In this document: positions 13,439 to 23,418 of the stretch, piece after piece
How positions within the stretch are numbered: position 1 is the stretch's first letter
How the letters are laid out: each line of letters begins with the position of its first letter
NCBI GenBank assembly: GCA_963779615.1
Contig: CAVZZA010000001.1
Location: 448,001 to 512,000 of the forward strand
Length of the DNA: 64,000 nucleotides
Reading direction: 5' to 3'
Source of the DNA: an uncultured Nitrososphaeraceae archaeon
GTDB taxonomy: Archaea; Thermoproteota; Nitrososphaeria; Nitrososphaerales; Nitrososphaeraceae
The notes under the pieces: model-generated
The model's input: only the letters and a program-made list of their open reading frames with translations
Database searches by the model: none
Told to the model about the DNA's origin: nothing
Program-made: the position numbers and the translations under genes

Positions 13439-16400
13439 CTAAAGGAAATCAAGAAGGGTGGGTTGGCTTTCTTTTGTTTTAAAAATAAAATTTAATTCGA
13501 CAATCAGGGATTCAACCCGGCTTTTTAGGTAACCCGTAACTTTGAAATTATTACACAGATCTTCTGCTAGAGCCACGTATTTTTCAACGGACCCCCGTGT
13601 CACTGTTTGTAACAAGGTATTTCCACACCCCAAGCATTTACCCAATAAGGGGATTCTTCTGTATTTCTCGCCGCATTTATTACACCTAAATGACTGTGAT
13701 GAATATGAACGCATGTTACCCATTATATCAGGTATTATGTGTGTAGTTAATACCATTGAGATAACCTCGTTTGTATCTACAGAGTTTATCAAATTAGCGG
13801 TAGAAATTTGCATTTCCAATTTTTCCCTCATTGTATTTAGGGTAGAATAGGCACTACGGTTATCATTGGAAATGAGAACATTACTATGATGGGTATACCC
13901 ATAATCATAAAACTGTCTGTCCTCACCTATCCTATTTTTCAATATTTCAATCAAATTAGAGGCATCAGACGCTTTGACTCCCTGCTGCCATGTGTAATTG
14001 TAAAACTCAAGCGGGTATTTTTCATCTATATCAACAGTGTGCGCTTGCCTTTGTACCTCATGTGGCAATATGATTGGTTGGATAAGCAAAGGTGCATCCA
14101 TTAATCCACCTATTTTGTCTGGTAAAAATGAGTATGAAAAATTTAAAAATGCATCAGATAACAGCATGATGGAATCAGCATCACCATCGCAGTCCCTTCG
14201 TTTGGCAGAATGCCATATGGGGGAACCCAAGCAGACTTGTGACTCTGTAAATCCTATAATTCGCCCAATAATACCAACAGAGGTGTGGGGTGCTAGTCCA
14301 ACTATTAATTGTCCAACCAAGTCATCAACAGAGTAGGCATTGTAAAATGGAGATAAATTGTATATTGCCACTAATTCTTCATCAATGAATTTAGCAGTTT
14401 TTAACAAGTGTTTTGCAGATTCTAAAGGGATGATAACATCCTGATTTAAGAGCTCTATGACTTGGTCACTGGAATTTATTTCATTGTTGTACCAATCTCG
14501 CGTGTAACCCAGGTCATGCAGTTTTGGAATGGAAATATTAATAAAAGCGGGCATAAAATGCGTAAGAGGCTCATTTGTGGCATCGAATCTTATTGTGCCA
14601 TCTTTAAACACCGATAACCCATATTTTTGCCTTAGGACACCCTTTTCAATGGGTTCTGCTTCCTTATCTTTACCCATCAGGGATTTTACACCCTTCAATG
14701 GGGAACTTATTCTACAACCTAATTTTGTCTCGGCTTTTTCAAGGACATTTTTTAGCGGGAACTGAATTGGGGAAAATGTTTTATAATCGTTACCACATTT
14801 TATACATTTATTTTTTCTTTTATCATCATTGAGGGTGTCAAAGGAAATTTCTGATGATTCCACTTTACATACCTTGCAGATAACTTTGATAGGTGTAGGG
14901 GTGTCACAATAAATGCAATTAGTGCTTAATGATGGGATATTGCATTTACGGCAAAATCGGTTTGATTTTTCAGAGTAAAAAGAAGATGAGCCTGACGCCT
15001 TTAATATATCCCGCATAGGCCCGCCTTTGCTGCCAACTGGAAATAGGACATGAATTGGTGGTTTCATCTTACGTTCTGCGGCTTTTTCCGGCCTACCAAC
15101 TCTTACAGAAATAGAGGAAGAAAATTTTGGGCGTATTTTTATGCCAGAAACAAGGTTTAACAAATCAACGACTTTGAAATCATTCTCCTTATTTTCGGCT
15201 AAAAGGTTAATTTTGTCCTGCAGCTTGAAAATTTGTTTGTCTTTTTTTAATAGAGCAAGAAGGTCTGGTATGGAAATGGAGACGGGAAAGGCATTAGTTA
15301 AAAAATATTGGTGCTGAATTTCAGGTATGCATAAACAAATTAAAGAAACGGCCTGGGGGTGATCTGATAAAATTATAGCTTGTTTGGTACTATCAATTTT
15401 ATGGAATACACCTAGTTTCTCAAGGATAGCTTTCAAGTCATGGTTATACGAAATTTCGATTATTTGTTTACTATAACTACCTTCAGTGATAGACAATAAG
15501 GCATTTCGGATGAACAAAAACTCTCTTAGATTAATGGATTCCCAATAAAAGGAATATTTTGGATGTAGTGGGATATTAAACTGTGAAGATATCATTAATG
15601 CTTCCTCAATAGAGGGTATTTTTGTAAATGGATTTAGGCAAAACTCAACTAATTCATTATATTTTAAACCATGAGATTTATTATCGATTTCTTTTATTTC
15701 TTTTACCCTTTCAAATAATTCTAATGCCCAAATCTCTTCAACATAACTCGCAGGTAATAGCTGCGCATTATTTTCTAAAAAATCACCATAGCTTATTAAA
15801 ATGTCACCCAAATACAATATTTTATCGATTTGAGTTTTTAAGTTCTGTGCCTGTTCTTTAGTATTAATCTGTAAAACAGTCCCATCGTTTAATTTTACAA
15901 TAGGGGGTTCAATGGTGTCTATTAGGGCAATGGTTGAAGCCTTGCCCGGTACATCCATTTTTATTTGAGTGCCAACAACAATAGCATTTTGCAACAAAAC
16001 AGGGATGGTATTATGGATTCCTACTGTTGCGAAACCAGTATTAAAACATCGTCCATAACGCAACCTAAATCCTCCAATATTTTTGTTCATCGATAAAACT
16101 GGCCTCCCAGTTATAACTTCAGACATCCTATGGCTTACCGTATCATCGTTTCCGGTTTGAATTGCCCCTTTTAACCTTCCAAGCCAATCCCAGCCTTCAA
16201 TGCTTAATGTTTCTACCAATTTTGAAAGTTTTCTGCTTCTTCCAATTAAGCCATCATTCATAACTCTAAGAGCCCCACCCCTAACCCTATTAGTTTGGAT
16301 TCTCTTTAATCCGCGATGGATTACTAATTCAACGGGATCGGTATCTACCCCAGCCAGCTCAACTGGCAGGTTTGAAATGCAATTATTAATATCTTCGTCC

Positions 16401-17041
16401 AATACCTTAAATTGGAAGTTGCCTACCTCCCTTTCGTATAGTCTTAATTCCTCAATAAATCTTCCTGTTTCATCATCAAATGAATTAGCTTGATATTTAT
16501 CAAGTCCAGTAACCTTTCTAACTTGGTCTGCAATCAACATAGTAAGGGCAGCTTCGGTTCCTCCTGCTGACCGTATGGGGCCGGCAAAAGAAACGGAAAG
16601 ATAGTGTGACCCATCCTTATTGTCCTTAATCTGTACATCTGATATCCCTTGCAGGGGTGCTACAGTAACTCCCTCTGTTACAACAGCCAAGCTTACCCTA
16701 ACTGCGTTCTCTAACCGTGTTTTAAGGTCACCAGTTCCGTACTCTCCAAGTGCAATTTCCTCAGCAATTTTTAAAGCTGCCTTTTCCTTTGTGGTATGGC
16801 TTAGCAGGGACCTCAATCTATCGGAAATATCAATATTGTGCATTTTTGCTACTCTGTCAGATAGATCATATGCTATTTTTGGCTCCACAGTGGTAGTAAT
16901 ATCATATCCTTTTTGTCTCGCTTTGCGGATTTGAGCGTATAGTTTGTTGACCTGTTCCAAAATATTTATTTGGTAGTCAACATAATGCTGTGGAATTGAT
17001 ATACTTTTTAATCTTATTTTAGCTTCATCTACTAAAGTCAT
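13439..17041 (-). CDS. polC: DNA polymerase D large subunit (DP2)
   Basis: AGPIRSAGGT, GGFRLRYGR, RVGRPEKA, catalytic RRDCDGDADS, Zn fingers, C-terminal PIP box QPTLLDF. Confidence 0.98.
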   Translation of the reverse strand: MTLVDEAKIRLKSISIPQHYVDYQINILEQVNKLYAQIRKARQKGYDITTTVEPKIAYDLSDRVAKMHNIDISDRLRSLLSHTTKEKAALKIAEEIALGEYGTGDLKTRLENAVRVSLAVVTEGVTVAPLQGISDVQIKDNKDGSHYLSVSFAGPIRSAGGTEAALTMLIADQVRKVTGLDKYQANSFDDETGRFIEELRLYEREVGNFQFKVLDEDINNCISNLPVELAGVDTDPVELVIHRGLKRIQTNRVRGGALRVMNDGLIGRSRKLSKLVETLSIEGWDWLGRLKGAIQTGNDDTVSHRMSEVITGRPVLSMNKNIGGFRLRYGRCFNTGFATVGIHNTIPVLLQNAIVVGTQIKMDVPGKASTIALIDTIEPPIVKLNDGTVLQINTKEQAQNLKTQIDKILYLGDILISYGDFLENNAQLLPASYVEEIWALELFERVKEIKEIDNKSHGLKYNELVEFCLNPFTKIPSIEEALMISSQFNIPLHPKYSFYWESINLREFLFIRNALLSITEGSYSKQIIEISYNHDLKAILEKLGVFHKIDSTKQAIILSDHPQAVSLICLCIPEIQHQYFLTNAFPVSISIPDLLALLKKDKQIFKLQDKINLLAENKENDFKVVDLLNLVSGIKIRPKFSSSISVRVGRPEKAAERKMKPPIHVLFPVGSKGGPMRDILKASGSSSFYSEKSNRFCRKCNIPSLSTNCIYCDTPTPIKVICKVCKVESSEISFDTLNDDKRKNKCIKCGNDYKTFSPIQFPLKNVLEKAETKLGCRISSPLKGVKSLMGKDKEAEPIEKGVLRQKYGLSVFKDGTIRFDATNEPLTHFMPAFINISIPKLHDLGYTRDWYNNEINSSDQVIELLNQDVIIPLESAKHLLKTAKFIDEELVAIYNLSPFYNAYSVDDLVGQLIVGLAPHTSVGIIGRIIGFTESQVCLGSPIWHSAKRRDCDGDADSIMLLSDAFLNFSYSFLPDKIGGLMDAPLLIQPIILPHEVQRQAHTVDIDEKYPLEFYNYTWQQGVKASDASNLIEILKNRIGEDRQFYDYGYTHHSNVLISNDNRSAYSTLNTMREKLEMQISTANLINSVDTNEVISMVLTTHIIPDIMGNMRSYSSQSFRCNKCGEKYRRIPLLGKCLGCGNTLLQTVTRGSVEKYVALAEDLCNNFKVTGYLKSRVESLIVELNFIFKTKESQPTLLDFL

Positions 17042-17057
17042 GTATATTCAATGGAGT

Positions 17058-17795
17058 TTATGAGCGGATAGCCGCAATGATATTGGAAAATTTTTTTTCC
17101 CATTCAAGATCTTGCTCAAGCAAGGTTCCAATAACTAATATATCAGCCCCCGCATCTGTTAGCTCTTTTGCAACAACCGAATCTTTTATACCCCCACCGA
17201 CAATCAACAAGCCATCAAAGTATTTCCTTACACTAGAAACCATATTAGGAGATATATTTTTATGAGCACCAGAGCCAGCTTCCAAATATACAAACCTCAT
17301 ACCAAGGTATTGTGCGGCAAGTGAATACATAACAGCAATTTTGTTCTTCTCAAAAGGTATTCCTTTAGCACGCCCCACAAACCACGCTGTTGTATTCTCC
17401 CCAATTATTATATACCCTGTTGGCAGGGGCTCTATGCTATATTTTTTTACTAACAAAGATGCCAGTGCCTGTGCGCCTGAAATGAAATAGGGGTCTTCTG
17501 AATTCAATAGTGAGGTAAATAAAATAGCATCAGCGTTGGGAGAAACGCCTGTAACATTTCCAGGAAACAAAATAATAGGAATAGAAAGCACGGATTTTAT
17601 GGAAAGCACTAGTTTGTCTAAATCAAGCTGATCAATTGCTGATGAGCCGCCGACCAAAATGGCCGAAGCACCCAATGATTCAACCCTTTTTGCAACGTGG
17701 GAGACATCCTTAAAATTTTCAGAATCCAATAAAGCAAAGCATATCTTTTTGTGTTTTTTTAGTTCATCATTTATATAGTTTTCTACCCGTTTCAA
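17058..17795 (-). CDS. Geranylgeranylglyceryl phosphate synthase
   Basis: LVGGSS, LFPGN, YLEAGSGA and VGGGI motifs. Confidence 0.95.
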   Translation of the reverse strand: MKRVENYINDELKKHKKICFALLDSENFKDVSHVAKRVESLGASAILVGGSSAIDQLDLDKLVLSIKSVLSIPIILFPGNVTGVSPNADAILFTSLLNSEDPYFISGAQALASLLVKKYSIEPLPTGYIIIGENTTAWFVGRAKGIPFEKNKIAVMYSLAAQYLGMRFVYLEAGSGAHKNISPNMVSSVRKYFDGLLIVGGGIKDSVVAKELTDAGADILVIGTLLEQDLEWEKKFSNIIAAIRS

Positions 17796-17897
17796 CTTCG
17801 ATAATTAACTTTATTAATTATTTTTAATTTATTGATTATGCTATTGTAAACGCAATAATAAAGATATATAACAAAGCTATACAAAAATGTATAGTTT

Positions 17898-18266
17898 ATG
17901 AGTAATGACAATATTCAAAAAAATTTATTATTCTTAAAAATTGTTGAAAAATCTACATTTACAAACAGGCAAATACAAATTATTCACAATATTTGCAATA
18001 AACAGAATAGACTCAAAGGGATAAGCTCAGGGGCATACTATAGGGAGGTAAAACAATGTAAAGACAAAATAAGAAAATTGTATTATTCCCTTATCCTGTT
18101 AAGTTTAATGGACATTATTAACAATGAGCAACTTATCACGTTAAACCTGGCAGTAGAGAAGCTTTATAAATTAAAAGACAACAATCAGGATATACATCAC
18201 GATGTTCCTCTAAACTCTGTGATGGATGTTATTGAACAGATGCTTAATAAAATGATATTATTGTGA
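17898..18266 (+). CDS. Conserved hypothetical protein, origin-proximal
   Basis: Clean ORF; STFTNRQIQII..ISSGAYYR segment resembles a conserved thaumarchaeal protein (recalled, not searched). Confidence 0.65.
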   Translation: MSNDNIQKNLLFLKIVEKSTFTNRQIQIIHNICNKQNRLKGISSGAYYREVKQCKDKIRKLYYSLILLSLMDIINNEQLITLNLAVEKLYKLKDNNQDIHHDVPLNSVMDVIEQMLNKMILL

Positions 18267-18359
18267 TGTTTTGGTAAAACATTATCTAAAAAGTATAGCA
18301 CATGTTGACATATAATCACATACAATAAGGTTATATCACACCCGCCCATTAGAAAAACT

Positions 18360-19109
18360 GTGAGCAGCGATATTGCATCACTTGTCTTGGTTTACATCAT
18401 AATTCCATTTGGTTTGGGTTTGAGTTTATTCTCACTGATAATTAAAATCTACAATAAGTTAATGCGTAAAAGTATAGTAAGGCACCAGTTAGCACTGGAA
18501 ATTTCAGGACAACAAGAACAGATAGGAGAACTAAGGGAAAAAATTAATTTATTATCAGAAAACATAGAAATAATATTCTCTAGAACCAATCACACAAATT
18601 CAAAATTAGACAGCATCAATAACACACTAAAAACGCTCGAGGAAAATAGCTTGAATAAGAATTTAACACAATATCATGTAATACCATCCAAGTATACCCA
18701 TCCAAGTGACACAATCACTGAACAATCACATACAAATGATGTCAAAGCATCACACTCGCAGACAGGACAGACAGAAACGCCTAATGATGATCGCCAGAAT
18801 AGCACTATAGAATACATCTTGAAAAAATTAGAAAGTAATTCGCTAACTACAAGGGAAATACAGCAATACATAGGTAGGACCCGCGAGCACACATCGAGAC
18901 TTATGAAAAAATTATATGATGATAAATTTGTGGATAGGGATACAAGTTCTAAGCCTTTCAAATACACAATTACAAGCGAAGGTCATAGACTGTTGATAAA
19001 ATATTCTGTTTCAAAAAGTAATCATCGTTCTGTTTATCTGAAGAATAATGAGAATTTAACAGATGAGTTGGCTGGGACTGGAATTGGGTATCCTGTGAAT
19101 TCACAGTAA
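18360..19109 (+). CDS. Membrane-anchored coiled-coil protein with C-terminal winged HTH
   Basis: N-terminal hydrophobic helix, heptad region, S/T/H-rich linker, wHTH LTTREIQQYIGRTREHTSRLMKKLY...KPFKYTIT. Confidence 0.75.
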   Translation: MSSDIASLVLVYIIIPFGLGLSLFSLIIKIYNKLMRKSIVRHQLALEISGQQEQIGELREKINLLSENIEIIFSRTNHTNSKLDSINNTLKTLEENSLNKNLTQYHVIPSKYTHPSDTITEQSHTNDVKASHSQTGQTETPNDDRQNSTIEYILKKLESNSLTTREIQQYIGRTREHTSRLMKKLYDDKFVDRDTSSKPFKYTITSEGHRLLIKYSVSKSNHRSVYLKNNENLTDELAGTGIGYPVNSQ

Positions 19110-19567
19110 CATCTTTTTGAACTCTTATCAATTTATAAATCCATTCTTTTCCCCTTTTACTTCTCATCAATTTGTTTTTTTCAAAGTACCTGGATAAATA
19201 CGTGGATATCAAGCTTAATTGTAATTTTTCACCATACAGGCTTTCATAGGATTCGGTAACATTTGAAGAGGTGAAGGAACTAAAGGCAAAGTTTTTCTCA
19301 ATAAGAGCCCATATTCTTGACTCTATAGAATTTAGGGATGGGTCTATTCTACTGGTGTCTTTTAGGTACATTGTTATTGTTGGTTGAATTGTAGCTTGGT
19401 TTAGCCTCCAAAGCAATGTGGTCTTCTTTTGAAATATTTAATGATTCCACTAACTGAAGAACCTTCTGAATTTTGTCTTTTGATAGATTGCCCTCTAATG
19501 ACAGATTGTATTTTCCACCGTCATCATCTTCCAACTCTATTTTTATCTTTTTCTTTCCAGTGGACAA
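18970..19567 (-). CDS. Origin-adjacent conserved protein with C-terminal wHTH-like domain, split by a +1 frameshift near 19360
   Basis: ORFs 19349-19567 and 18970-19416 join if one A is removed from CCTAAAAGAC; the joined protein resembles the thaumarchaeal gene divergent from cdc6 (LSLISTYLSR..R.K.GKEW.Y). Confidence 0.65.
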
Positions 19568-20060
19568 TCTATCGTCTCTGTGAACTTGACAGCATGTGTG
19601 AACTTAACAATATAGTGTTAATTTAGATAACTAAAAGCTAAGTTTTTTTTTACCAAAACAAAGGTAGGTTTAACATCATTTGAAAGCTAAATGATAACAA
19701 TTTATCTGTAAATTGATTAATAAAGGTTCCAGTGGAAATAAAGGGGTTGATTCACGGTTGTTAGCTTTGTTAAAAATACAGGTACTGTTCCAGTGGAAAT
19801 AAAGGGGTTGATTCACGGTTGTTAACAGAAGATTATTATCTGTTAAGCACAATGTTAATATATAATAAAAACTCCCAGACCCCTTAGTTTCTAATGCAAT
19901 TATATTATTTTACGTTTAATTATATTAATATATATTTTAATATTTAGTTAATAAAAGTTGATTAAGTGCTTTATAAATAAATGTAAACAAAAGTTAACAT
20001 ATTTACAATGTTATTATCTTATACCATTCGAATAGAAAGAAAGGGGTGTCTGTGTTAAAA
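19555..20060. other. Chromosomal replication origin (oriC) with ORB elements
   Basis: Two copies of GTTCCAGTGGAAATAAAGGGG; inverted ORB-like element at 19878-19899; ORB-like element at 20027-20047; mini-ORB at 19555-19564; AT-rich tracts; directly upstream of cdc6. Confidence 0.92.
19726..19824 (+). repeat. Two identical 38-bp ORB-containing direct repeats (19726-19763 and 19787-19824)
   Basis: gttccagtggaaataaaggggttgattcacggttgtta, twice. Confidence 0.95.
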
Positions 20061-20091
20061 TACCGCAAACAAAGGCTGGGAGAAAGAGATA

Positions 20092-21303
20092 ATGGATTCG
20101 GACTATTTGGATAACATTTTTGAAAAGGCAGTAATTGGTAATAATTTGATTAAAAATAGAAAAACACTAACAATAGATTATGTTCCAGAAAGACTCCCAT
20201 TTCGTGATGAAGAATCAAAAACTATTGCTCAAGTATTATCTGTGGTCCTAAAAAATGGAAGACCATCAAACCTTTTGGTTTTTGGAAAACCCGGAACGGG
20301 CAAAACAGCAGTTGTGAAAAATGTAATTAACAGGTTAAAAAAAAAATCAATAGAACATGGAATAGAAATAACTGTTACTATAGTCAATGCAAAGACCGCA
20401 AATACTTCCTACAAGGTATTGTATGATATTGCAGAGGACATGGGGACAAATAAAATTGATAAAAAATTAAAAGTTTATTTTACCGGATTATCCATGGGGG
20501 AAGCAACGGATCGGATTCTTGAATACGTAAAAAAAAATAATCTTCATGTGATTCTAGTCATAGATGAAATAGATTCTTTGGTGGATAGAAACGGTGATGA
20601 CATTCTATATAGTTTTACTAGGGCCAATGAACGATTATTAGAATCAGGTTTTATGTCTCTAATAGGTATATCCAACAGTTTAACATTTAAAGATAAATTG
20701 GATCCGAGGGTCAGAAGCAGTTTAAGTGAAGAAGAATTGGTATTCAACCCATATACAGTACTTCAATTAAAAGAAATTCTGTATGAACGTGCACAACTTG
20801 CTTTTAGTGAAGGATCCATCTCTCCATCTTCAATTAATTTATGTGCTGCAGTTGCTGGAAAGGAAAATGGTGATGCTAGAAAAGCAATAGATCTTTTAAG
20901 GGTAGCTGCAGAGATAGCTGAAAGAGAGCGAGCACAAATAGTTATTGAAAAACATATTAGAGAAGCGCAAGAAAAAATAGAAAAAGACACTAATTATGAA
21001 GTAATAAAGAATTCAACAACCCACACAAAATTAGTAGTTCTTTCCATATTGAAGTCTCAAACTGGGATGACTGGAGAAGTTTATGATATCTATGTTTCAT
21101 TATGTAAAATAATAGAACAGGATACGTTGACACAACGTAGAATTACTCAAATAGTAAGCGAATTAGATCAATTGGGATTAATCACTTCAAATGTAGTAAG
21201 TCATGGACGTTACGGGCGCTCTCAAATAATAAAAATTGCAGTTTCTTCTAATACAATAACAAATGCATTAAAGGAAGATTCTTTTTTATCTGTATTATTA
21301 TGA
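20092..21303 (+). CDS. cdc6: Orc1/Cdc6 replication initiator
   Basis: Walker A GKPGTGKT, Walker B IDEID, LDPRVRSSL, GDARKAIDLLR, C-terminal wHTH. Confidence 0.98.
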   Translation: MDSDYLDNIFEKAVIGNNLIKNRKTLTIDYVPERLPFRDEESKTIAQVLSVVLKNGRPSNLLVFGKPGTGKTAVVKNVINRLKKKSIEHGIEITVTIVNAKTANTSYKVLYDIAEDMGTNKIDKKLKVYFTGLSMGEATDRILEYVKKNNLHVILVIDEIDSLVDRNGDDILYSFTRANERLLESGFMSLIGISNSLTFKDKLDPRVRSSLSEEELVFNPYTVLQLKEILYERAQLAFSEGSISPSSINLCAAVAGKENGDARKAIDLLRVAAEIAERERAQIVIEKHIREAQEKIEKDTNYEVIKNSTTHTKLVVLSILKSQTGMTGEVYDIYVSLCKIIEQDTLTQRRITQIVSELDQLGLITSNVVSHGRYGRSQIIKIAVSSNTITNALKEDSFLSVLL

Positions 21304-21322
21304 GTCAACTATTTCGATTTAC

Positions 21323-21390
21323 TATGATCAAAGGACATGATCAAATGTTCTGATCAAAAGATATGATCGAAAGAACAGCTTTTTATAAAT
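21323..21390 (+). promoter_or_regulatory. Four 13-bp TGATC-centred repeats followed by a TATA box, upstream of wHTH copy 1
   Basis: tatgatcaaagga / catgatcaaatgt / tctgatcaaaaga / tatgatcgaaaga, then ttttataaat. Confidence 0.65.
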
Positions 21391-21420
21391 ACTTGGTCAA
21401 CATTGTTCTATTCGATAATA

Positions 21421-21675
21421 ATGAAATATAGAAGTAGAACAGAAATAACTGTGTTAATTCTAGAAGCAGCAAATGGGGGAGCCACCAAGACAAAAATCAT
21501 GTACAAATCATTCCTTTCATATGCACAGTTAAAAGAGTACTTTTCAATGTTGATAGAGAATGCATTGATAGAATATGAGGATGGAACACAAAAGTACAGG
21601 ACAACAGAAAAAGGTTTGCAGCTATTAAAAATATATAATCAGATAGAAGAATTAATTCCAAATACCATCAAATAA
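21421..21675 (+). CDS. Small wHTH regulator (COG3432-like), copy 1
   Basis: MKYRSRTEITVLILEAANGGATKTKIMYKSFLSYAQL. Confidence 0.9.
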   Translation: MKYRSRTEITVLILEAANGGATKTKIMYKSFLSYAQLKEYFSMLIENALIEYEDGTQKYRTTEKGLQLLKIYNQIEELIPNTIK

Positions 21676-21716
21676 TTTTTTATTTTTTAACAAATCAACA
21701 TCTTTTTGCTATTATA

Positions 21717-22073
21717 TTACTTAACTTTCAACATATGATGATTTGAAATATCTGCCGTTCCTTCTTTATAATTTACAACAACTGTATCCCCTATATTATA
21801 ATTGCAGTTATTTATTCCTCTGGGATGGTCAGGTGTATCTACAACACATACTCCATTATTTCTATTAATTACTTTAACTTGGGCCGAAACATCTTCCCTG
21901 ATTAAATTTTTAATAGGAAAAACAAAAACTCCCAAAACAACAAAAACTCCCAAAACAACAAATCCAAATATGATAAGTAATTTTTTAGTGGAGGGCTCTG
22001 AGTTTATTTTATCATAACCAAATGACATACAATTATTGATATTGCTAGACTTAAAAAACTGTCGAAATATCAT
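21717..22073 (-). CDS. Hypothetical single-pass membrane protein
   Basis: One transmembrane helix containing an 18-bp VVLGVF duplication; small domain with a Cys pair. Confidence 0.6.
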   Translation of the reverse strand: MIFRQFFKSSNINNCMSFGYDKINSEPSTKKLLIIFGFVVLGVFVVLGVFVFPIKNLIREDVSAQVKVINRNNGVCVVDTPDHPRGINNCNYNIGDTVVVNYKEGTADISNHHMLKVK

Positions 22074-22870: not shown

Positions 22871-23139
22871 TATTTGCTATTATTATTATAATAATAATAT
22901 ATTGAGTTAACAGTGCCTATTTTAGGGCATTACAGCCTAATCTAAATCAATAAAATAACAATTAATTAACAGCATTTATTATTTTTCAATTTTATTGAAG
23001 ATCCTAAATAATGCCAATAATAAAATCAATCACATTTTCGATGCCACTTTTTACTATGATCAAATGTTCTGATCAAAAGATATGATCGAAAGAACAGCTT
23101 TTTATAAATACTTGGTCAACATTGTTCTATTCGATAATA

Positions 23140-23418
23140 ATGAAATATAGAAGTAGAACAGAAATAACTGTGTTAATTCTAGAAGCAGCAAATGGGGGAG
23201 CCACCAAGACAAAAATCATGTACAAATCATTCCTTTCATATGCACAGTTAAAAGAGTACTTTTCAATGTTGATAGAGAATGCATTGATAGAATATGAGGA
23301 TGGAACACAAAAGTACAGGACAACAGAAAAAGGTTTGCAGCTATTAAAAATATATAATCAGATAGAAGAATTAATTCCAAATACCATCAATTCGTCAATA
23401 CACAAAGAGCCTTTTTAA
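23140..23418 (+). CDS. Small wHTH regulator, copy 2
   Basis: Nucleotide-identical to copy 1 up to ...NTI, with a different tail. Confidence 0.9.
   Translation: MKYRSRTEITVLILEAANGGATKTKIMYKSFLSYAQLKEYFSMLIENALIEYEDGTQKYRTTEKGLQLLKIYNQIEELIPNTINSSIHKEPF

Follow-up and report, generated by a model that had tools for sequence, protein, structure and literature searches.

Three genes beside a predicted archaeal replication origin most likely form an origin-linked regulatory module. In the window, the whole 64,000-nucleotide stretch of DNA analyzed here, whose source genome is a Ca. Nitrosocosmicus, we established how the genes of this trio (ORF1, ORF2 and ORF3) are structured, the domain architecture of their products and that their linkage is conserved, and we give about an even chance to the trio being an ancient, vertically inherited, origin-flanking nucleic-acid-binding cluster with the oriC/cdc6 control region as its site of action. 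None of the three protein families is named in databases, and literature searches found no paper on ORF1, ORF2 or ORF3. A first-pass annotation had placed three uncharacterized genes between GGGP synthase/polD and oriC-cdc6, and the flanking genes identified with Pfam bear this out. The gene order is polD-GGGPS-ORF1-ORF2-ORF3-cdc6, with an ORB-bearing oriC preceding cdc6:

13439-17041, minus strand: polD DP2, the flank opposite cdc6.
17058-17795, minus strand: GGGP synthase (PcrB E 5e-49), a context gene with common synteny, outside the module.
17898-18266, plus strand: ORF1, 122 aa, a small all-helical protein of a family without a name.
18360-19109, plus strand: ORF2, 249 aa, with TM helix, coiled coil, linker and wHTH.
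19567 to 18970, minus strand: ORF3 as a whole, an N-domain of beta-hairpin and helix followed by a BlaI-like wHTH, in the assembly interrupted by a frameshift.
20092-21303, plus strand: orc1/cdc6 initiator gene (Cdc6_lid 3e-24, Cdc6_C 6e-22).

ORF3 lies directly upstream of cdc6 in all 20 loci from the same order, in all 20 sampled from further orders of the class and in 13 of 20 from other classes, and it keeps to that upstream side whether divergent from cdc6 or in tandem with it, so that its homologues in relatives are not unlinked from origins, in keeping with what the first-pass annotation had proposed. This conservation across relatives is a new result, and the tie to the origin is very strong. 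The ORF3 homologues of other classes that bear names belong to Bathyarchaeia or Methanomethylicia. Within the class, ORF3 is single copy in 136 of 151 genomes and in 110 of the 111 high-quality ones, counts that include the unpublished genome G169 (135/150 and 109/110 without it); across the phylum it is present in 134 of 201 genomes, and the 67 genomes in which the family was not found are concentrated in eleven families. ORF1 and ORF2 together share the ORF3-cdc6 locus in at least 15 of 20 order loci, 14 of 20 class loci and about 10 of 20 phylum loci, with ORF2 there in 20/20 order loci, and by a hand tally of coordinates no more than 5 kb separates ORF1 from ORF3 in 47 of the 69 genomes from outside the order in which the two occur. 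In some lineages (6 of 20 class loci; the families coded f34 and f40), ORF1/ORF2 have moved away from ORF3-cdc6. The adjacency of ORF3 and cdc6 outlasts every other adjacency in the block and is kept through inversions. Since GGGPS and polD belong to the same conserved block, synteny alone is no proof of origin function, and much of it could reflect a gene arrangement inherited around the origin; GGGPS, which has no link to replication yet holds its place in the same conserved order, is an observation that counts against a regulatory module.

ORF1, with the conserved motif T..Q...G.Y.R..KQ, is probably co-transcribed with ORF2 as one operon. Its homologues comprise 401 representative clusters at E<=1e-3 among 1.84 billion, and it is present in 105 of 201 genomes of the phylum. 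Searches of Pfam and NCBIfam gave no match to ORF1, a Pfam scan of ORF1 and its 149 best-scoring listed matches (150 proteins) gave no family common to more than one member, and designed helical bundles were the sole matches of its profile among PDB sequences. One weak Atlas row (Sigma70_r4, score 0.83) is the lead toward an HTH. Compared by hhalign, ORF2 had no specific relation to either ORF1 or ORF3.

The architecture that the first-pass annotation had read for ORF2, namely a TM helix, a coiled coil, a flexible linker and a wHTH, was upheld by hydropathy, heptads, AlphaFold2 and TrmB matches:

18381-18455, plus strand: predicted TM helix, aa 8-32.
18480-18668, plus strand: coiled coil, aa 41-103, from the heptad pattern.
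18669-18782, plus strand: disordered linker, aa 104-141, from AlphaFold2.
18783-19022, plus strand: wHTH, aa 142-221, from AlphaFold2 and profile matches.

Kyte-Doolittle hydropathy and flanking charges indicate an N-out/C-in topology, and within residues 41-103 the a/d heptad positions are 67% hydrophobic, compared with 30% overall. The AlphaFold2 model (pLDDT 79) has a single helix at 2-103, disorder at 104-142 and a wHTH at 142-221 (H142-159, H164-171, H175-187, E191-194, E201-204), and the H-H-H-beta-beta fold, along with its matches, places the C-terminal domain in the wHTH superfamily. Residues R175, E176, H177, R180, R193, P199 and Y202 are invariant, and the recognition helix (REH..R) is unchanged across the order. 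Foldseek matched the model to SmtB, MepR and YodB at E 6e-4 to 1e-3, and 20 of 21 ORF2 orthologues matched TrmB at E<=0.1 (best E 7e-7). Assignment to the TrmB/MarR family proper was rejected, with 16-20 bits for the window's protein against Pfam gathering cut-offs of 24.6-27. ORF2 is single copy in genome G000. Its TM helix is kept across Nitrososphaeria (19 of 20 order loci and 14 of 15 class loci), so this part of the earlier reading is not refuted; among homologues from other classes 5 of 12 have no TM helix, and anchoring is therefore not essential to the family.

ORF3, which the first-pass annotation described as a second, convergent wHTH-like gene, does encode a wHTH and is divided here into ORFs of 72 and 148 aa in different frames:

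19349-19567, minus strand: 5' piece, 72 aa, the conserved N-domain and then an N-rich linker into the frameshift.
19424-19567, minus strand: conserved N-domain, aa 1-48, beta-hairpin and helix.
18970-19416, minus strand: 3' piece, 148 aa, in the other frame, wHTH and C-terminal extension.
19123-19329, minus strand: BlaI/Fur/PadR-like wHTH, from the structure model and profiles.
18973-19122, minus strand: genus-specific C-terminal extension, overlapping the ORF2 3' end by 140 nt.

The gene is a single intact ORF in all 20 relatives examined, where one base fewer at 19367 joins the two frames, and one base is likewise missing at 19367 in all three public runs that cover the site. The N-domain evolves as slowly as Cdc6 (within-genus identity 0.91 and 0.89, respectively). 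The structure model contains one wHTH (79-144) and a beta-beta-alpha N-domain; Foldseek and VIA searches with the ORF2 and ORF3 models returned generic wHTH regulators only, the VIA rows excluding the ORF3 N-domain. Penicillinase_R was matched by 11 of 22 ORF3 members (best E 1e-7), with the window's protein below the curated cut-off. Two family assignments were rejected: BlaI/MecI/CopY (PF03965), for which matches were sub-threshold and the wHTH is C-terminal, and, by domain organization, a WhiP/Cdt1-like initiator, given one wHTH in place of two tandem winged-helix domains. No protease domain that could mark a BlaR1/MecR1-type partner was found among neighboring ORFs at 17058-22073, and Cdt1 was absent from the matches listed for the ORF3 profile against PDB sequences. 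RNA-library contigs from two studies span ORF3 and parts of ORF2, leaving ORF1 and the origin spacer uncovered, a gap that does not point to silence, and end at 19558/19571, beside the ORF3 start, where a DNA run extends past; they give a weak hint that ORF3 is expressed from a leaderless mRNA. The generic wHTH folds, the displacement of ORF1/ORF2 in some lineages and the frameshift of ORF3 in the assembly are further observations against a regulatory module.

Between ORF3 and cdc6, and just inside ORF3, the window carries the following elements:

19555-19564, plus strand: 10-nt ORB-core match TTCCAGTGGA, inside codons 1-4 of ORF3, with no G-string.
19579-19609, plus strand: two 13-nt near-palindromic direct repeats, TGTGAACTT[G/A]ACA (GTGAACTT repeats), 18-nt spacing, a candidate operator.
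19604-20058, unstranded: ten TGTTAA/TTAACA hexamers, clustered across the ORF3-cdc6 spacer.
19726-19763 and 19787-19824, plus strand: ORB1 and ORB2, identical 38-nt repeats that are conserved in 10 genus sequences.
About 19876-19899, unstranded: inverted degenerate ORB, with invariant columns in 10 genus sequences.
About 19900-20020, unstranded: AT-rich putative unwinding region, GC about 0.25, which with the degenerate ORBs on either side makes up 19870-20047.
20022-20047, unstranded: degenerate ORB, with invariant columns in 10 genus sequences.

The cdc6 domains, two exact and two degenerate ORBs and the AT-rich stretch together point to an Orc1/Cdc6-ORB origin of the oriC1 type, predicted here from sequence, of which the mapped N. 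maritimus origin is the analogue in the accounts cited (PMC4010727, PMC5797428). The 3.17-Mb genome has just two copies of the 20-nt ORB core, both at the predicted oriC, and GC skew across the 64 kb gave no clear switch. The first-pass annotation had the convergent gene start inside a mini-ORB; a 10-nt core match does overlap its first four codons, with nothing beyond the core. Of 10 genus members, 8 carry this match exactly, and it is not encoded outside the genus. The 13-nt direct repeats precede the ORF3 start by 12-42 nt and are partly conserved in the genus alignment. It had also been claimed that both wHTH genes lie in or near clusters of short motifs. This holds for the ORF3-cdc6 spacer, with 10 TGTTAA hexamers against 1.25 expected and 0 of 300 shuffles reaching 10, and no cluster in ORF2 was statistically clear. 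The TGTTAA cluster is absent at the origin in L022-L031, all of which have ORF2 and ORF3; as the enrichment fails to follow the presence of these genes, the hexamers cannot be assigned to either protein. This failure to track ORF2/ORF3, like the 5 of 12 other-class ORF2 homologues that have no TM helix, stands against a regulatory module.

Lying beside the origin and the initiator gene in the soil archaeon studied here as well as in most distant relatives, ORF1, ORF2 and ORF3 are good candidates for origin-control or origin-positioning factors; DNA binding by the trio, its target and any effect on replication are inferred. In the regulatory module that we favor, ORF3 would bind the ORB-bearing spacer between its own gene and cdc6, and would control transcription of both genes, use of the origin, or both; according to Korbel et al. 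in 2004, conserved divergent gene pairs reportedly consist typically of a regulator and its target. ORF2 would be a single-pass membrane protein, N-out and C-in, whose dimerizing coiled-coil stalk and flexible linker would place the wHTH head in the cytoplasm just beneath the membrane, such that whatever ORF2 binds would be held there.

A rather doubtful alternative is that these proteins act as ordinary transcription factors on targets elsewhere, and that their position, like that of GGGPS, reflects inherited gene order around the origin. Conservation of the entire polD-GGGPS-ORF1-ORF2-ORF3-cdc6 block, including the unrelated GGGPS, is consistent with this, as are the generic folds of the ORF2 and ORF3 wHTH domains and the precedent of haloarchaeal oapABC, which is origin-associated by synteny yet has a vesicle-forming function by the account in PMC10927574. 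However, the adjacency of ORF3 and cdc6 at class depth (20/20, compared with 11/20 loci for GGGPS) survives inversions, and ORF3 is single copy and nearly universal.

We consider it unlikely, while still a live hypothesis, that the trio is a physical origin-to-membrane tether or segregation device in which ORF2, alone or via ORF3/ORF1, anchors or positions oriC through clustered sites; a membrane tether is possible and is not the best-supported reading. Membrane attachment of ORF2 is predicted from its TM helix, topology and AlphaFold2 model, and since model and topology give it no extracellular domain, ORF2 resembles an anchor more than it does a sensor. Conservation of the TM helix across Nitrososphaeria and of the oriC linkage, the unique short-motif cluster at the origin and a bacterial analogue with the same logic, RicO, as described in bioRxiv 10.64898/2026.03.06.710092, argue for a tether, as does the poor understanding of archaeal segregation, for which SegAB alone is described in the relevant part of a 2024 review (PMC7617429). 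Against it, no ParA/SegA-like NTPase motor is encoded in the cluster, the TM helix is missing in 5 of 12 distant homologues, ORF2 is tied to the origin less tightly than ORF3, no site is assigned to ORF2, and oapABC, also origin-associated, proved to drive vesicle formation as reported in PMC10927574. The first-pass proposal that the module could anchor or organize oriC at the membrane is partly supported, and neither the linkage check nor the TM-helix check refutes it. Decidedly unlikely is the broader proposal that the trio is a previously unrecognized origin-organizing system, in which ORF3 marks the oriC/cdc6 spacer and ORF2 with ORF1 holds the origin at the membrane, and which would span the Thermoproteota classes Nitrososphaeria, Bathyarchaeia, Methanomethylicia and others. 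If true, replication initiation and chromosome partition would be coupled to the envelope in archaea without known segregation machinery, by a system equivalent to RacA/RicO yet made of unrelated components. Finally, it is highly improbable that ORF2 is a membrane-sequestered transcription factor whose wHTH is freed by linker proteolysis on an envelope or cell-cycle signal, an idea of pure inference to which the long disordered linker between stalk and wHTH, tolerant of indels (9-nt in-frame among related strains), lends itself, and against which stand the absence of a protease gene from the cluster and of an extracytoplasmic sensor part from ORF2.

To our knowledge, control of origin firing and chromosome positioning or segregation in archaea are largely unknown outside Sulfolobales, and for ammonia oxidizers the initiator, ORBs and one mapped origin are all that is on record. 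Against this background, three protein families without a name persist beside oriC/cdc6 in at least three Thermoproteota classes, one of them nearly universal and single copy and another predicted to be membrane-anchored, and cultured AOA (Nitrososphaera, Nitrosopumilus, Nitrosocosmicus) should carry the trio too. Even as plain regulators, they would include in ORF3 a strong candidate for a transcription factor controlling orc1/cdc6.

Among known systems, RacA-DivIVA of B. subtilis is a bacterial origin-membrane anchor, and it shares with RicO of S. aureus the logic proposed for ORF2, in which a sequence-specific DNA-binding domain and a membrane element are combined with origin-proximal repeats. 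The likeness is one of logic, with no homology claimed: in RicO the DNA-binding domain is N-terminal and an amphipathic helix lies at the C-terminus, as described in bioRxiv 10.64898/2026.03.06.710092, whereas ORF2 has a true TM helix at its N-terminus, a coiled coil and a C-terminal wHTH. Sulfolobus SegAB is also archaeal, with small genes and clustered DNA sites, yet SegA is described as a ParA-like ATPase (PMC7617429) and the trio cluster encodes no ATPase; a SegAB/ParAB-type partition system was rejected, with a ParA/CbiA-type match in 0 of the 8 ORFs scanned at 17058-22073. ORF3, with a single wHTH and a beta-beta-alpha N-domain, differs from Sulfolobus WhiP, which has two wH domains. In the account of PMC12141716, WhiP (Cdt1-like) and UBP are both non-Orc1 archaeal origin binders, the former a winged-helix protein encoded beside its origin and the latter a beta-rich saddle rather than a wHTH. 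Haloarchaeal oapABC (now ArvABC) is likewise a small conserved cluster, by oriC1/orc1, for which a replication role was first suspected from position alone; its proteins, a small GTPase, DUF2073 and a Zn ribbon as described in PMC10927574, with no wHTH or TM-coiled-coil protein among them, are unrelated to the trio, and OapA is needed for vesicle formation by the same account. An oapABC/ArvABC identity (small GTPase, DUF2073, DUF2072) was rejected, ORF1-3 having no such Pfam matches. The BlaI/MecI/CopY (Penicillinase_R) and TrmB/MarR regulators have the wHTH fold and weak profile matches in common with ORF3 and ORF2; ORF3 differs from the former in its reversed domain order, with a C-terminal wHTH, and in having no BlaR1-like partner, and ORF2 differs from the latter in its additional TM helix and coiled coil.

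The window (G000:C1:448001-512000) belongs to a genome of 3.17 Mb in five contigs, and the records of close homologues carry the name 'Candidatus Nitrosocosmicus'. ORF calls and domain matches bear out the first-pass annotation in placing three uncharacterised genes, ORF1 to ORF3, between GGGP synthase (GGGPS)/polD and oriC-cdc6.

Features of the locus (window coordinates)
13439-17041, minus strand, polD large subunit
17058-17795, minus strand, GGGP synthase (PcrB E 5e-49)
17898-18266, plus strand, ORF1
18360-19109, plus strand, ORF2
19567 down to 18970, minus strand, ORF3, split into two ORFs in the window
19579-19609, two 13-nt near-palindromic repeats just upstream of ORF3
524 bp, spacer from ORF3 to cdc6
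19726-19763 and 19787-19824, two exact 38-nt origin repeats (ORBs)
near 19876-19899, inverted degenerate ORB
within the spacer, AT-rich stretch, GC about 0.25
20022-20047, degenerate ORB
20092-21303, plus strand, orc1/cdc6 (Cdc6_lid 3e-24, Cdc6_C 6e-22)

By its sequence the locus is an oriC1-type origin, since the ORBs and the AT-rich stretch beside orc1/cdc6 are all kept in ten genus sequences and the genome has just two occurrences of the 20-nt ORB core, both in this spacer. A site of this type fires in N. maritimus (Pelve et al. 2013, as related in the available parts of PMC4010727 and PMC5797428). GC skew across the 64-kb window was uninformative.

The adjacency of ORF3 and cdc6 is the most durable of all, unbroken by inversions. 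Within the order, ORF2, ORF3 and cdc6 keep the window's arrangement in all 20 loci sampled (9 from the genus, 11 from other families), with GGGPS in 19, polD in 15 and ORF1, by tblastn, in 15. Of 20 class loci sampled outside the order, 19 have ORF3 adjoining cdc6, and in the twentieth ORF3 closes a circular record that opens with cdc6, such that the origin linkage proposed from the window alone holds in 20/20 loci at both depths; 14 of these class loci also have ORF1 and ORF2 alongside, and 11 have GGGPS. At phylum depth, with 20 loci sampled outside the class, ORF3 adjoins cdc6 in 13, 11-12 have ORF2 and 10 have ORF1; the homologues there that bear a name belong to Bathyarchaeia and Methanomethylicia. 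ORF3 invariably lies at the upstream side of cdc6 and is mostly divergent from it; in the tandem exceptions (relatives' loci L026, L045/L073, L046 and L053) it is co-directional, 150-240 nt upstream, and may share an operon with cdc6.

ORF3 occurs as a single copy in 136/151 class genomes and 110/111 high-quality ones (135/150 and 109/110 excluding the unpublished genome G169), and is present in 134/201 phylum genomes, with misses concentrated in eleven families. ORF1 is present in 105/201 phylum genomes and lies at most 5 kb from ORF3 in 47 of the 69 genomes outside the order having both (coordinates tallied by hand). Single copy and nearly universal, ORF3 evolves about as slowly as Cdc6, with mean genus identities of 0.91 for its N-domain, 0.80 for its wHTH and 0.89 for Cdc6; the ORF2 wHTH (0.69), ORF1 (0.53) and the ORF2 stalk (0.37) complete the series.

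The convergent second wHTH-like gene of the first-pass annotation does contain a wHTH, but what was read there is a gene split by a frameshift: ORF3 is a single uninterrupted ORF in all 20 order relatives excised, and in the window a linker frameshift leaves ORFs of 72 and 148 aa. A base at 19367 is missing in all three public runs covering the site (one DNA and two RNA libraries; contigs from strains about 98% identical to the window), and with one base fewer the frame arithmetic joins the two pieces; the extra base is either a genuine mutation or an artefact of assembly. In the AlphaFold2 model (pLDDT 69.5), an N-domain of ~48 residues, built of a beta-hairpin and a helix, is followed by a variable linker and then the wHTH, which has weak Penicillinase_R (BlaI/MecI) matches in 11/22 rows (best 1e-7); other structural matches were generic. 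RNA-library contigs from two studies cover ORF3 over 19081-19571 and ORF2 in parts. They stop at 19558/19571, close by the start codon of ORF3, whereas the DNA run extends into the origin; expression of both genes in soil and a leaderless ORF3 mRNA are thereby weakly hinted at.

A C-terminal extension of ~50 residues, confined to the genus (window 18970-19122, minus strand), stays an open frame in 9/9 genus relatives and in the 3' piece found in the window, and 71-149 nt of it overlap ORF2 at the 3' end (18970-19109 in the window, where ORF2 is on the plus strand). Its final 15 residues are conserved, but the opposite strand there encodes the final helix of the ORF2 wHTH, itself conserved, and the constraint may therefore come from that strand. 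Near its C-terminus the tail reads Q..L..VY, which we take to be a loose likeness to the PIP box consensus; the window's polD protein ends in Q..L..FL.

ORF2 matches its earlier description as a TM helix, coiled coil, flexible linker and wHTH by hydrophobicity, heptads, AlphaFold2 and TrmB matches. Flank charges around the hydrophobic helix (residues 8-32; net -1 on the N-terminal side, +3 on the C-terminal side) indicate a predicted N-out/C-in topology, and residues 41-103 follow a heptad pattern (67% hydrophobic at a/d vs 30% overall). The model (21-row alignment, pLDDT 79) runs as a single unbroken helix from 2 to 103, is disordered through 104-142 and folds as a wHTH of TrmB/MarR/ArsR type at 142-221, with Foldseek matches to SmtB/MepR/YodB at about 1e-3. 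TrmB is matched at E<=0.1 by 20/21 orthologues (best 7e-7), the window's own ORF2 scoring under Pfam cut-offs, and recognition-helix residues R175, E176, H177 and R180 are invariant across the order. In two public runs, closely related strains lack 9 nt of the linker at 18759 with the frame kept, which fits a length-tolerant tether region.

Conservation of the TM helix holds throughout Nitrososphaeria (19/20 order loci; 14/15 class loci, the exception being a fragment at a locus edge) but not in other classes, where only 7/12 homologues keep it. The order homologue without the helix (L024:3457-3936, minus strand) is possibly truncated or mis-started; four from other classes (L054, L055, L059, L066) seem to be soluble coiled-coil wHTH proteins.

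ORF1 belongs to a compact, helical family of 120-160 aa; a search of 1.84 billion proteins places 401 representative clusters in it at E<=1e-3. A Pfam scan of ORF1 and its 149 best-scoring listed matches found no family common to more than one of the 150 proteins, NCBIfam has no model for it, and a sigma-70 region 4-like HTH is suggested by one weak Atlas row only.

The spacer's TGTTAA cluster is real and old: ten hexamers lie within 19604-20058 against 1.25 expected (reached in 0/300 shuffles), at the sole such hot spot in 64 kb, and the same excess is seen in the spacers of the window and its 9 genus relatives (10/10), in that of L021, and in around a dozen spacers at class or phylum level (many, not all, Nitrososphaeria and Bathyarchaeia). 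It is absent from L022-L031, where both ORF2 and ORF3 are present, and from other spacers; the excess does not follow the occurrence of those two genes. The cluster may be an origin element. The 'mini-ORB' in which ORF3 was said to start survives as a 10-nt core match inside the first four codons, exact in 8/10 genus sequences; it is just 10 nt long and genus-confined, being impossible elsewhere because the ORF3 N-terminus differs.

Downstream of cdc6, a 300-nt direct repeat (21337-21636 and 23056-23355, 100% identical) holds in each copy most of a 90-98-aa HTH_45 wHTH gene (21403-21675 and 23122-23418; PF14947 E 1e-21), with a small TM-protein gene between them (21717-22073, minus strand). 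Genus relatives likewise carry two HTH_45 copies, which points to a duplication that has been kept up or to gene conversion, provided that the repeat is not an assembly artefact.

We give about an even chance to an origin-linked regulatory module, in which ORF3 would act on the shared oriC/cdc6 spacer and ORF1-ORF2 would form a DNA-binding pair held at the membrane. Of the refuting conditions named in the first-pass annotation, the two open to computation leave the proposed module standing, since origin linkage persists in relatives and the TM helix in Nitrososphaeria. Position is not function, however, given that GGGPS sits in the same block and that haloarchaeal oapABC, according to the available part of PMC10927574, had a replication role presumed from position, OapA being a vesicle GTPase. 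Both points favour unrelated regulators held in place by inherited gene order, a reading we rate as rather unlikely; against it stand the ORF3-cdc6 adjacency, which outlives every other through inversions, and the single-copy, nearly universal state of ORF3. A true origin-membrane tether, RicO- or RacA-like in action, we regard as unlikely, and a factor released by proteolysis as very improbable.

The domains of ORF1-3 are ordinary, and homologues are annotated 'hypothetical' or 'predicted transcriptional regulator' in all sources. Our searches found neither a Pfam or NCBIfam model nor a paper on these families or their cdc6 linkage; the families themselves, the ORF2 architecture (TM-coiled-coil-wHTH) and the multi-class origin linkage appear undescribed so far. 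Among known systems, RacA works as an origin-membrane tether. For a tether reading of the ORF1-3 module, RicO would be the model (bioRxiv 10.64898/2026.03.06.710092, in the part available), and oapABC, as far as the available part of its report goes, resembles ORF1-3 in origin-side gene position.
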